Shown here: positions 12,775 to 15,680 of the stretch, in pieces
Layout of the letters: each line of letters opens with the position of its first letter
Numbering within the stretch: position 1 is the stretch's first letter
Assembly (NCBI GenBank): GCA_042408445.1
Contig: JBHORC010000016.1
Location: forward strand, 13,012 to 77,011
Direction: 5' to 3'
Length of the DNA stretch: 64,000 nt
From: Chloroflexota bacterium
Lineage (GTDB): Bacteria > Chloroflexota > Limnocylindria > Limnocylindrales > CSP1-4
Notes under the pieces: generated by a model
The model's input: only the letters and a program-made list of their open reading frames with translations
The model's database searches: none
What the model was told of the DNA's origin: nothing
Translations under genes and position numbers: made by a program

Positions 12775-13680
12775 GTGGGCGGCGTGAATCTCGTCGACCG
12801 GTTCCGCACGCTCGGCGGCGGGCTGGATCACCCGGAAGGGGTGGCGTGGGATCCCGTCGCGGGCGCGCTGTACGCGGGCGGCGAGGCCGGCCAGCTCTAC
12901 TGCGTCACGCTCGACGGGTCGGTCGAGCAGGTCGCGACGACCGGTGGGTTCCTCCTCGGGATCGCCGTCTCGGACGGGACCGTCTTCGCGTGCGACGTCG
13001 CGAAGGGGGCAGTGGTGGCGATCGAACCCGAGACGGCGTCGTGGAAGGTGGTCGCCGACGGTGACGGTGCGGGCGATCGCATGCGGGCTCCGAACTGGCT
13101 CGCCTTCGACGAGGGCGGCCGGCTCTACGTCACGGACTCCGGCGACTGGGGCCGGGGCGACGGTCGGATCTGGGCCGTCGAGGCCGACGGGCGTGCGCGC
13201 GTCTGGACGGAGGCGACGAACCGGCTCCCGAACGGCTGCTGCCTGAGCGGCGACGGAACCGCGTTGTTCGTCATCGAGACGAACGGCCCGTCGGTGTCGC
13301 GCGTGCCGATCCTCGCCGATGGGACGGCCGGTCCACCGGAGCTCGTCGCGGAGCTGCCCGGGACCGTACCCGATGGCATCGCCCTCTGTGCCGACGGATC
13401 GCTGCTCGTGTCCTGTCAGCGCCCCGACGCCGTCTACCGGATCGCGCCGGACGGCGGCGTGGAGCTCCTTGCGGTCGACCCGACCGGCCAGATGCTGGGC
13501 GCGCCGTCGAACGTCGCCTGGGCGGGTCCGGACCTCGACCGCCTGGTCACGTCAAACCTCGGCCGATGGCACCTGACGATCGCCGACCTGTCGGACACGG
13601 GTCTGCGCGGCGTGGGGCTGCCGCGGGCCGATGCCGGGGCGAGTGGCCGAGGCAGGGTGCTGGTCGGCGATACTGGATAG
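12775..13680 (+). CDS. SMP-30/gluconolactonase/LRE-like (SGL) beta-propeller protein
   Basis: SGL-family repeats (DHPEGVAWDP, RLYVTDSGDWGRGDGRIWAVEADG, PNGCCLSGDG, VPDGIALCADGSLLVS). The start is GTG 12775 (the second GTG at 12784 is also possible). The last codons (GDTG*) are formed by the 13-bp direct repeat shared with tRNA-Val. Confidence 0.7.
   Translation: MGGVNLVDRFRTLGGGLDHPEGVAWDPVAGALYAGGEAGQLYCVTLDGSVEQVATTGGFLLGIAVSDGTVFACDVAKGAVVAIEPETASWKVVADGDGAGDRMRAPNWLAFDEGGRLYVTDSGDWGRGDGRIWAVEADGRARVWTEATNRLPNGCCLSGDGTALFVIETNGPSVSRVPILADGTAGPPELVAELPGTVPDGIALCADGSLLVSCQRPDAVYRIAPDGGVELLAVDPTGQMLGAPSNVAWAGPDLDRLVTSNLGRWHLTIADLSDTGLRGVGLPRADAGASGRGRVLVGDTG
13666..13678. repeat. Direct repeat copy 1 (GGCGATACTGGAT), identical to the 3' part of tRNA-Val at 15610-15622
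   Basis: Exact 13-bp match (15/16 with flanks) to tRNA-Val positions 59-71; the two copies bracket a ~1.93 kb segment. Confidence 0.6.
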
Positions 13681-13764
13681 ACGCCTGCCGCAGTCGTCGC
13701 GGTAATCTCCGGGCGCCAGCCACGGGCGAGCCTGATCTCGCTCGCATCGGACCAGCGAGGAACC

Positions 13765-15333
13765 GTGATGGCGACCGTTGGCCGAATCACCCAGCCCGCC
13801 TCTCCGCCCGAGGTCCGCGCGCCGGCAGGGACCGTTCGCGGGTCGTGGGAGGCTGACGTCGCGGTCTTCCGCGGCATCCCGTTCGCCGAGCCGCCGGTCG
13901 GTGAGCTGCGGTTCGCGGCTCCGCGGCCACCGCGGCGATGGGATGGAAACCGGGAGGCGATCTCCTTTGGACCGCCTCCGCCGCAGGCCGCCGCCTTCGG
14001 GATGACGGCGCCATCGCGGAACTCCGCCGGCGACGATTGGCTGACGATCAACGTCTGGTCGCCCGAGCCCGGGCCGGCTGCAGGGCTGCCGGTGATGGTG
14101 TGGATCCACGGCGGCGCCTACACGATCGGGATGTCCAGCCTGCCGGAGTACGACGGCGCGCGCTTGGCGCGAGACGGGGCGGTCGTCGTGGTGACATTCA
14201 ACTACCGGGTTGGGATCGAGGGTTTCGCCGCGATCGAGGGAACGCCGGCAAATCGCGGGCTGCTCGACCAGATTGCGGCGCTCGAATGGGTGCGCGACAA
14301 CATCCGGGCCTTCGGCGGCGACCCGGACCGCGTCGTCATCTTCGGCGAATCGGCGGGCGGCGGGTCCGTCGCCGCGTTGCTTGCGATGCCGCGCGCGTTG
14401 GGCCTGTTCGCGAGGGCCATCGCGCAGAGCGCCCAGGGCACGTACTTCTCTCCGGCGCTCGCCGCCGACATTGCGACGGCCTGCGCCATGGAGCTGGGGC
14501 TCCGAGCAACCGTCGCGGACCTCTCGACGGTCGCGCCGCCGCGGTTGTCCGGGGCCGGGGACGCGGTCGGTGCGCGAATGAGCGATTGGGCCGACCGCTG
14601 GGGCCCGATCGCCAACCGCTCGATCGCGTTCTCGCCCATCGTGGAGGGCGACACACTGCCGACGACGCCGTGGGAGGCCCTCGCCCACGGCGCCGGTCGG
14701 GACATCGACCTCCTCGTCGGTCACACGCGGGACGAGCACCGGTTGTTCAGCGCCCTCGAAGGGCTCCTCGGCCAGGTCACGGCCGAACAGGCGGAGGCGG
14801 CGCTGCGCCGATTTGCGCCCGGACCGGACGGCGCGCGACGGTATCGGGAGGGGTTCCCGGGCGCGGCACCGGAGGAGCTGTTCGAGCTGGTCAACTCCGA
14901 CTGGTCCTTCCGGATGCCGACCCTGTACTTGGCCGAGAGACAGACCGGAGCAGGTGGCCGGACCCACGTCTACGAGCTGACCTGGCCCGCGCCCGGCATG
15001 GGCGGCCTGCTCGGGGCGTGCCACGGTCTCGACGTGCCGCTCGTCTTCGGCACCCTCGACCGCGGCCAGCCTGCGATGCTGATCGGCGCTGGCGCGAGCG
15101 CCGAGGCCGAAGCGCTCTCCGAGCGAATGCGGGCAGCGTGGACAGGGTTCGCCGCATCCGGCGACCCCGGCTGGACCCACTACGACGCCGAGCGTCGCCA
15201 GGTTCAGATCTTCGACTCCGAGCCGACGCTTGCGGTCGATCCGGAGGGGACGTCGCGGAGGATCTGGCGCGATCAGCCATTCACGGTGCCGCTGCCGCTG
15301 ATGGGCGCCGCTAGCGCGGAACAAGGAGGATGA
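13765..15333 (+). CDS. Carboxylesterase type B (para-nitrobenzyl esterase-like)
   Basis: Motifs FRGIPFAEPPVGELRF, WIHGGAY and GESAGG around the serine nucleophile; ~520 aa. Confidence 0.85.
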   Translation: MMATVGRITQPASPPEVRAPAGTVRGSWEADVAVFRGIPFAEPPVGELRFAAPRPPRRWDGNREAISFGPPPPQAAAFGMTAPSRNSAGDDWLTINVWSPEPGPAAGLPVMVWIHGGAYTIGMSSLPEYDGARLARDGAVVVVTFNYRVGIEGFAAIEGTPANRGLLDQIAALEWVRDNIRAFGGDPDRVVIFGESAGGGSVAALLAMPRALGLFARAIAQSAQGTYFSPALAADIATACAMELGLRATVADLSTVAPPRLSGAGDAVGARMSDWADRWGPIANRSIAFSPIVEGDTLPTTPWEALAHGAGRDIDLLVGHTRDEHRLFSALEGLLGQVTAEQAEAALRRFAPGPDGARRYREGFPGAAPEELFELVNSDWSFRMPTLYLAERQTGAGGRTHVYELTWPAPGMGGLLGACHGLDVPLVFGTLDRGQPAMLIGAGASAEAEALSERMRAAWTGFAASGDPGWTHYDAERRQVQIFDSEPTLAVDPEGTSRRIWRDQPFTVPLPLMGAASAEQGG

Positions 15334-15351
15334 CGCCCGCGCTGTGGGCCG

Positions 15352-15576
15352 TTACCCGGTGCCGGCGCTGGTGCGGTCGCCCGCGTCACGGGGTGCGATC
15401 GGCAGGCGGGCCTCGTCGCCCGTCCACGGCCGTGCCCGGCGCCACAAGCCCCTGACCGCGCGTCGGTGGGCGGTGTACGCCTCGCCGTCCCTGGTGGCCA
15501 GCGTCGGCTCCTCGTAGAGGCGGACGAAGCTCGCGACGCCGACCCAGACCACGATGGCGTCGACCAGCAGGGTGTG
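15352..15576 (-). pseudogene. C-terminal remnant of an isoprenylcysteine carboxyl methyltransferase (ICMT/PEMT)-family membrane methyltransferase
   Basis: The fragment VVWVGVASFVRLYEEPTLATRDGEAYTAHRRAVRGLW matches the conserved ICMT C-terminus (RIRYEEetL...GeeYreY..rV). Only ~50 aa remain, and the upstream part of the track ORF overlaps tRNA-Val, so it is a truncated gene. Confidence 0.35.
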
Positions 15577-15604
15577 GCGAACGTCTGCGCCTGTCGAGTG
15601 AGGG

Positions 15605-15680
15605 TGGTGGGCGATACTGGATTCGAACCAGTGACCCCGCGGATGTGAACCGCGTGCTCTAACCACTGAGCCAATCGCCC
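15605..15680 (-). tRNA. tRNA-Val (anticodon CAC), 76 nt with encoded CCA
   Basis: Manual cloverleaf of GGGCGATTGGCTCAGTGGTTAGAGCACGCGGTTCACATCCGCGGGGTCACTGGTTCGAATCCAGTATCGCCCACCA: 7-bp acceptor stem, D-stem GCTC/GAGC, anticodon stem CGCGG/CCGCG with loop TTCACAT, T-loop TTCGAAT. Confidence 0.85.
15610..15622. repeat. Direct repeat copy 2 (GGCGATACTGGAT) within the T-arm/acceptor 3' half of tRNA-Val
   Basis: See copy 1 at 13666-13678. Confidence 0.6.

Follow-up and report, generated by a model that had tools for sequence, protein, structure and literature searches.

We analyzed a 64,000-nucleotide stretch of DNA from a bacterium of the class Limnocylindria, phylum Chloroflexota (GenBank contig JBHORC010000016.1; hereafter the window). 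In the window, the 3' end of the tRNA-Val gene with anticodon CAC, tRNA-Val(CAC), is repeated at a distance, and the two copies enclose only 1.9 kb with a type-B carboxylesterase gene. This islet is a decayed integrated relic without an integrase, similar to a cis-mobilizable element (CIME), an ordinary known kind of element at a classical kind of target. It probably arose long ago when a segment carrying the esterase gene was inserted into tRNA-Val(CAC) in Campbell fashion, after which the recombinase was lost and the relic was inherited vertically and remodelled locally. We observed the duplication and its extent, its conservation among relatives, the foreign affinity of the esterase, and the presence of the esterase gene at two tRNA-Val genes.

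A distal copy of the tRNA-Val(CAC) 3' end

The features of the islet are given below in window coordinates, and the distal repeat copy is called R.

15605-15680, minus strand: tRNA-Val, anticodon CAC, intact, with encoded CCA; the target gene (ARAGORN; Rfam RF00005, 69.6 bits)
15605-15622, minus strand: proximal repeat copy, putatively the attL-like core (tRNA nucleotides 59-76)
13661-13678, minus strand: distal repeat copy R, putatively attR-like, 17/18 identical to the tRNA 3' end (exact 13-mer part at 13666-13678)
13768-15333, plus strand: PnbA-like type-B carboxylesterase gene, the conserved cargo of the islet, convergent with the tRNA gene (PF00135)

Along the plus strand, the aconitase gene (end at 12679) is followed by an SMP-30/gluconolactonase-like (SGL) gene at 12772-13680, R, the carboxylesterase gene, a short minus-strand open reading frame (ORF) and tRNA-Val(CAC), which is the sole tRNA gene of the window. 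Past the tRNA gene, DUF167, YggT, an anti-sigma/sigma pair, YggS and FtsZ are all encoded on the minus strand.

The first-pass annotation, which was made from the window alone, had reported a 13-nucleotide repeat of the tRNA 3' half that was too long to be expected by chance. The 13-mer GGCGATACTGGAT had exactly two occurrences in the window, both on one strand (13666-13678 and 15610-15622), and shuffled sequences gave an expectation of 0.07 matches to it with one mismatch tolerated. The repeat was in fact longer, as the sequence at 13661-13678 (TGGTCGGCGATACTGGAT) equalled that at 15605-15622 (TGGTGGGCGATACTGGAT) at 17 of 18 positions, and the match stopped exactly at the encoded CCA. It covered tRNA nucleotides 59-76, that is, the last two bases of the T-loop, the 3' strand of the T-stem, the 3' acceptor strand and CCA. 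When the anchored 18-mer was scanned over the window on either strand, the best remaining places matched at 13/18 (3 places) and then at 12/18 (20 places). On the plus strand, R formed the final six codons of the SGL gene plus part of its TAG stop (..VLVGDTG*), as the first-pass annotation had also seen. Because the anchored match was 17/18 against 13/18 for the next best, and because R was found at the matching position in relatives, R is genuinely paralogous to the tRNA-Val 3' end and chance is excluded.

The related loci, denoted by L-numbers, comprised 80 FtsZ-anchored loci plus further related contigs, and all of them together amounted to 1.57 Mb. The FtsZ-anchored loci closest to the window were all from Limnocylindria metagenome-assembled genomes (MAGs), and an identical contig of 3.3 kb was present in SRR24490439. 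The window and L121 shared 96% identity in aconitase and 84% in SGL, the window and L122 shared 98% and 83%, and the window and L039 shared 78% in aconitase and 82-88% in FtsZ. L039, L129 and L133 are long-read MAG contigs in which FtsZ and aconitase are broken into several frames by indel errors, so that gene calls in them need care. R had orthologues in five relatives (L121, L122, L039, L129 and L128), and it lay upstream of the esterase gene in all but the esterase-less L122. The order around the repeats in the related loci was as follows.

L121: aconitase, SGL, R (identical 18-mer), esterase, terminator hairpin, tRNA, DUF167, YggT
L122: aconitase, SGL, R (GGCAATACTGGAT, 1638-1650), 74 nt with the hairpin, tRNA; no esterase
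L039: R is an exact 13-mer of its own tRNA end (CCAGTATCGCCCA, 13/13), 23 nt upstream of the esterase start; a sigma factor, and no SGL, beyond R
L129: aconitase, dioxygenase, DinB, R (TGGTGGGCGATACTG, 15/15 including CCA), 34 nt, esterase, hairpin, tRNA, DUF167, YggS, FtsZ
L128: degenerate R (GGCGACTACTGG) upstream of the esterase
L090: esterase abuts the tRNA; the upstream side is missing
L083: esterase abuts the tRNA

In an alignment of the window with L121, L122 and L039, R stood out as an island of conservation between flanks that could not be aligned. The distance from R to the esterase start was always 23-90 nt, whether the sequence there was coding or intergenic. Toward the anticodon arm, no significant extension of R was seen in the window or in L121 and L122. 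A search for more degenerate copies of the tRNA end, as in tandem accretion, found none above background between the esterase gene and the tRNA or between aconitase and SGL. In L039, the remnant at 14305-14347 may extend as far as the anticodon arm and so cover tRNA positions ~24-74, apart from internal deletions, although this was marginal (p about 0.02); if true, the extended remnant would overlap the ribosome-binding site and start codon of the esterase gene.

The outer side of R was then informative in two relatives. The hairpin CAGGGCC-N4-GGCCCTG followed tRNA-Val in many relatives, whether or not the esterase gene was present, and it is the usual tRNA-Val terminator. In L128 this motif occurred twice in 11 kb, once by the tRNA gene and once on the outer side of R. 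The two copies belonged to a 70-nt module (4901-4970 and 10101-10169) made up of the sequence beyond the hairpin, the hairpin, the spacer and the tRNA end, which aligned with a score of 22.5, as compared with a maximum of 16 in shuffled sequences and 12.5 in other windows. The esterase-less loci L002 and L003 carried the tRNA, a spacer of the type seen beside R in L039, and the hairpin. The 16 nt past R in L039, in register with the CCA end, were TCGTGACCGCGACCGT, which matched the native spacer of L003 (TCGTGACCCCAACAGT) at 13/16 (empirical p = 0.003) and that of L002 at 11/16. Since the outer side of R in L128 and L039 retains native tRNA spacer or terminator, just as an attR consists of core plus host flank, R resembles what an insertion into the tRNA gene predicts, namely the original tRNA 3' end in a displaced position.

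A carboxylesterase of actinobacterial type at two tRNA-Val genes

The carboxylesterase that the first-pass annotation had placed between the repeats was confirmed, and it matched the family profile PF00135 over its full length (E 5.3e-91, residues 14-471). Among its nearest relatives in the database, hundreds of Streptomyces, Kitasatospora, Amycolatopsis and Micromonosporales proteins were 72-76% identical to it, and the L128 esterase was 83-84% identical to Streptomyces proteins. The window esterase was thus about as close to Actinomycetota enzymes as to its orthologues in sister Limnocylindria genomes. By these sequence comparisons, the esterase is of actinobacterial type and was horizontally acquired across phyla. 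In a neighbour-joining tree, the Limnocylindria esterases formed one clade nested among Actinomycetota, with those of the window and L121 as sisters within it. As all Limnocylindria copies fall in this single nested clade, the tree suggests that the gene crossed between the phyla once and then descended vertically.

A recent replacement of the esterase gene between the window and L121 was suspected, since their esterases were only 74-78% identical while aconitase was 96% identical, but the tree placed the two as sisters with long branches, and the idea was rejected on that ground. No relatives of the esterase were found on viral contigs by either a single-sequence or an alignment query.

The esterase gene adjoined tRNA-Val in L039, L083, L090, L121, L129 and L132, and in the FtsZ-anchored set it was present in 1 of the 80 loci (L039), where it abutted the tRNA. 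In L132, a 1.2-Mb contig, the neighbouring tRNA was a different one. The esterase gene at 6911-8452 stopped 30 nt from the 3' end of tRNA-Val(TAC), again in convergent orientation, and this tRNA gene lay in a tRNA-Val/Leu/Leu cluster beside SecG, iPGM, TIM and WhiA, a locus unrelated to the CAC site. The last 25 nt of the L132 tRNA-Val(TAC) gene were identical to those of the CAC gene at 23 of 25 positions. No distal repeat was found upstream of the esterase gene in L132 (6911-8559). Because random relocation to the 3' ends of two tRNA-Val genes is very unlikely, the presence of the esterase gene at both, seen at the TAC gene in this single contig, is the best evidence for target-specific integration.

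Another contig, L091, has GGGCGATAACTGGAT at its very start (positions 1-15), equal to the tRNA-Val end except for one inserted base; just downstream of it lies an esterase gene with 68% identity. An MreB-like gene follows the esterase gene, and there is no tRNA gene on the contig. The opening sequence could represent a further R, or a repeat could have interrupted the assembly here; we regard it as suggestive only.

We also examined whether tRNA-Val ends are used elsewhere. The IMG/VR contigs L109-L119 contained partial tRNA-Val 3' segments of about 18-50 nt rather than full genes, and in L109, L110, L112 and L113 these segments adjoined Pfam-verified tyrosine integrases. L106 and L119 had complete tRNA-Val genes beside integrases. 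As the partial segments adjoin tyrosine integrases, these contigs give general support to the use of tRNA-Val 3' sequence as an att site.

The probable insertion and other explanations

The following course of events would account for these data. In an ancestor of the Limnocylindria clade, a segment carrying an actinobacterial PnbA-like carboxylesterase gene would have entered the 3' end of tRNA-Val(CAC) in Campbell fashion. The incoming DNA would have supplied a replacement tRNA 3' end and terminator, and the original 3' end, with its native spacer and terminator, would have been pushed to the far side, where it survives as R. The catalyst was most likely a site-specific recombinase acting on the T-loop-to-CCA segment of tRNA-Val, of which no gene is left; its role and the order of the steps are what we infer from the present arrangement. 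The recombinase gene and most other genes of the element would have been lost afterward. Later, ordinary indels would have removed the esterase gene in L122, an SGL gene would have been placed outside R in the subclade of the window, and in the window alone the proximal terminator would have been replaced by a methyltransferase gene fragment. The original segment may have been larger, as RimK-like and M64-peptidase genes are present in L128. The first-pass annotation had read the repeats as the attL and attR of a tRNA-targeting element that had lost its integrase. The position of R at the outer edge of the esterase segment, the native flank in L128 and L039, the foreign esterase, the L132 site and the absence of an integrase all agree with that reading, although its recombinase is deduced rather than seen.

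Four extra genes stood between the esterase gene and the tRNA in L128 (RimK-like, a 247-aa ORF, an M64 peptidase and a 140-aa ORF), and they may be original cargo. Other genes followed the esterase gene over more than 7 kb in L133, with no tRNA in the 7 kb fetched. Extra repeats were not detected in L128 or L133.

Several observations weigh against the insertion, or against its simplest form. No tyrosine recombinase was found in the window and the related loci with a hidden Markov model built from 6 verified integrases. In the same sequences, no serine recombinase was found by phmmer with Bxb1 and phiC31 as seeds; the small number of seeds limits the sensitivity of these searches. Moreover, none of the 20 Pfam-scanned proteins from the tRNA-aconitase intervals was a recombinase. 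Outside R, no significant similarity to the native tRNA flank was seen in the window, L121, L122 or L129, and in the subclade of the window this position is taken up by the SGL tail. No R was present within 438 nt upstream of the esterase gene in L083. The module of about 70 nt in L128 includes the terminator and exceeds the identity usual for att sites, and tandem duplication plus deletion would yield the same arrangement. The esterase tree was a neighbour-joining tree without support values. The composition of the islet is native. A contrast with the flanks in GC content or codon usage, which the first-pass annotation had proposed to look for, did not appear: GC was about 72% and flat across the islet region, and the GC content at third codon positions was 0.86 in the esterase gene, within the range of its neighbours (0.82-0.92). 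The only loss that was observed is not a repeat-by-repeat excision either. L122 lacks the esterase gene and has SGL near the tRNA, a comparison that the first-pass annotation had proposed to make, but both repeats are kept there. As the repeats remain 74 nt apart, the L122 loss is an ordinary deletion with its ends inside the repeats. Finally, the event is ancient and the relic vertically inherited, which speaks against a simple recent islet, and the methyltransferase fragment beside the tRNA, described below, does not belong to the ancestral islet.

The main alternative, which we think unlikely, is that no integrative element was involved. The esterase gene would then have come by another way, and the unit of tRNA 3' end, spacer, terminator and esterase gene would have been duplicated in tandem, with deletion of the second esterase gene. 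Such a history fits the duplicated module of about 70 nt, which takes in the terminator and the sequence beyond it; it agrees with the absence of recombinases from the searches of the window and the related loci; and ordinary indels without repeats at their ends do alter the tRNA-aconitase interval, for instance in L122 and at the methyltransferase fragment. However, it requires more steps, and it accounts neither for the esterase gene at tRNA-Val(TAC), an unrelated locus, in L132, nor for the boundary of the repeat falling in the T-loop. The T-loop was reportedly described by Williams in 2002 as a classical crossover sublocation in tRNA genes.

The conservation of R between diverged flanks suggests that it may still have some role, be it as an att site acted on in trans or as a cis element of the esterase gene. 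Under the latter explanation, which is compatible with an old insertion and which we consider improbable, R would be kept today as the -10 element of an esterase promoter (GATACT) or as the site of a regulator. R is indeed conserved in four genomes in which both flanks have diverged, and its distance to the esterase start downstream stays within 23-90 nt. In contrast, a consensus scan found neither a promoter-like site nor a terminator at R, Rfam found only the tRNA, and there is no conserved -35 element; moreover, L122 retains R without the esterase gene, and L083 and L132 have the esterase gene without R.

The role in trans would correspond to R plus the esterase gene being a single-gene cassette that still moves without an integrase of its own. 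It would be about 1.7 kb long with one ORF and an 18-24-nt tRNA-derived att site, and it would be moved between the CAC and TAC genes of tRNA-Val by a recombinase encoded elsewhere in Limnocylindria genomes. We consider this very improbable. If true, it would be a functional analogue of an integron cassette aimed at tRNA 3' ends, and it would account for R being kept while its flanks decay. A chance match, lastly, is refuted by the comparative data: although a 12-mer of tRNA-Val recurs elsewhere in the window by chance and spurious repeats abound in high-GC DNA, the best null identity was 13/18, as compared with 17/18 for the match fixed at the tRNA end, and the remnant stands at the corresponding position in five other genomes.

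Returning to the old insertion with subsequent loss of the recombinase, we compared the islet with described systems. Prophages and islands integrated at tRNA genes classically use a tyrosine integrase, with crossover in the T-loop or the anticodon loop. The islet resembles them in its position at a tRNA 3' end, the identity from T-loop to CCA, the foreign cargo and a tRNA apparently restored by incoming DNA; like a tRNA-integrated island, it starts at the 3' end of a tRNA that stays intact. Unlike them, it lacks an integrase as well as phage and conjugation genes, its composition gives no signal, and only 1.9 kb are bracketed. CIMEs retain att repeats but have lost the genes for integration and transfer (PMC5704250). 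The islet is similar in that it is bounded by direct repeats of the 3' end of its target gene, with apparent attL/attR-like repeats, carries a small cargo and contains neither integrase nor transfer genes. It differs in that its mobilization by a neighbouring element is only putative, in that no integrative and conjugative element, integrative and mobilizable element or recombinase was seen here in any relative, and in that it is old and vertically inherited, with a mismatch already present in one repeat.

The closest described case in the phylum Chloroflexota is that of the ssrA islands of Dehalococcoides, which have direct repeats of about 20 bp of the ssrA 3' end, carry accessory enzymes and form tandem arrays (PMC3146451). 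They share a conserved module with the serine integrase DsiB, and some islands without the module were proposed by the authors to be CIMEs (PMC3146451). In both cases, the repeats derive from the 3' end of a gene for a small RNA and accessory cargo is carried, and some of the Dehalococcoides islands lack the module as well. In contrast, the target of the islet is tRNA-Val, there is a single pair of repeats and no integration module, no recombinase, of the serine type included, was found in any relative examined, and the age differs. The islet leaves the current understanding of integrative elements unchanged. Its interest lies in a soil Chloroflexota lineage that gained an actinobacterial-type esterase gene at a tRNA gene, and in an 18-nt tRNA-end footprint that can outlast its integrase across a divergence of about genus level or beyond, as between the window and L039. 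For annotation, it means that the C-terminal tail of SGL and an annotated 66-aa ORF beside the tRNA are by-products of the history of the islet.

The tRNA-aconitase interval and neighbouring genes

The remaining features of the region are listed below.

10016-12679, plus strand: aconitase gene, 3' part, the conserved far boundary of the variable interval (tblastn synteny, about 40 relatives)
12772-13680, plus strand: SGL gene just outside R (PF08450, E 1.8e-21)
15420-15579, minus strand: 3' fragment of a PEMT/ICMT-family methyltransferase gene, last ~50 codons (phmmer)
15580-15604, no strand assigned: short tRNA-adjacent spacer, ancestral 3' flank kept, of the CTGTCGAG type as in L121 (pairwise alignment with L121, weak similarity)
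15716-15745, minus strand: promoter-like site upstream of tRNA-Val, TTGCCC, 18-nt spacer, TATGAT (consensus scan only)

About 40 Limnocylindria MAGs kept FtsZ, YggS, (YggT), DUF167, tRNA-Val(CAC) and a convergent aconitase gene, and the interval between the tRNA and aconitase ranged in length from 10 bp to more than 8 kb. Crude gene calls gave 126 proteins in these intervals, and all-against-all clustering left ~60 of them without a relative in any other interval. The 20 proteins sampled with Pfam were of transport, metabolic and regulatory types, and no mobile-element genes, recombinases included, were detected in the intervals. The tRNA-Val(CAC)-aconitase interval is a hotspot of gene turnover in Limnocylindria (window 12680-15604; loci L002-L072).

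The SGL gene is one of the genes that have entered this interval. SGL was present in 0 of the 80 FtsZ-anchored loci, and its homologues in other Limnocylindrales had a conserved MgtE-Nramp-SGL-cyclase neighbourhood. The protein of the window has a C-terminal extension of ~20 aa that passes through unconserved sequence into R; such a tail was found only in the window, L121 and L122, and other homologues stopped ~20 aa sooner. Because the homologues have another conserved neighbourhood and the tail is restricted to these three loci, the SGL gene outside R is a relocated accessory gene, a newcomer whose last codons read through into the relic. In L122, the deposited SGL model (756-1718, 320 aa) runs through R and the terminator hairpin up to 7 nt from the tRNA. 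As stop codons are scarce in high-GC DNA, this model is an annotation artefact.

The first-pass annotation had described a remnant of ~50 aa of the ICMT family that abuts the tRNA and forms part of the islet. The family was right. An exhaustive phmmer search gave 111 hits with E<=1e-3, down to 1.8e-9, all to the C-termini of proteins of 130-215 aa, and the best matches were 50-60% identical over their last ~50 residues. Of ten matched proteins scanned with Pfam, nine had PF04191 (PEMT), and six of those nine also had PF04140 (ICMT). The fragment itself returned nothing except its own ORF in Pfam, PDB and word-indexed protein searches. It corresponds to the final ~50 residues only and not to a complete PEMT/ICMT domain (a protein of about 165-215 aa), conserved residues are changed (RFG to RDG and AYRR to AHRR), and no full-length PEMT/ICMT gene was found in any fetched locus. 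In the source annotation, the surrounding ORF at 15352-15552 is given as a protein of 66 aa (P0001); it is a pseudogene remnant.

The other two parts of that description did not hold. The homology stopped about 25 nt short of tRNA-Val, and the fragment was absent from L121, L122, L039, L083, L090 and L129, which have the hairpin in its place. A terminator hairpin lay by the tRNA in L039, L083, L090, L121, L122, L128 and L129 and was missing in the window, where 271 bp with the fragment stand at the position that the hairpin takes in relatives. Since the hairpin-adjacent state is common to the relatives and is replaced only in the window, the fragment is a later insertion in the window lineage alone and is not bounded by repeats.

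Two minor observations concern the sequence at and beyond the tRNA gene. Rfam gave a sub-threshold match to 'Plastid-ycf2 5'UTR' at 15607-15680 on the plus strand, antisense to the tRNA (29.9 bits, as compared with a gathering score of 65.7). This match almost certainly arises as an artefact from tRNA-like sequence that the model contains. Farther on, an anti-sigma/ECF-sigma-like gene pair at 16296-18370 separates YggT from YggS, which adjoin in most relatives; the anti-sigma gene was also present in L121, with 66% identity.

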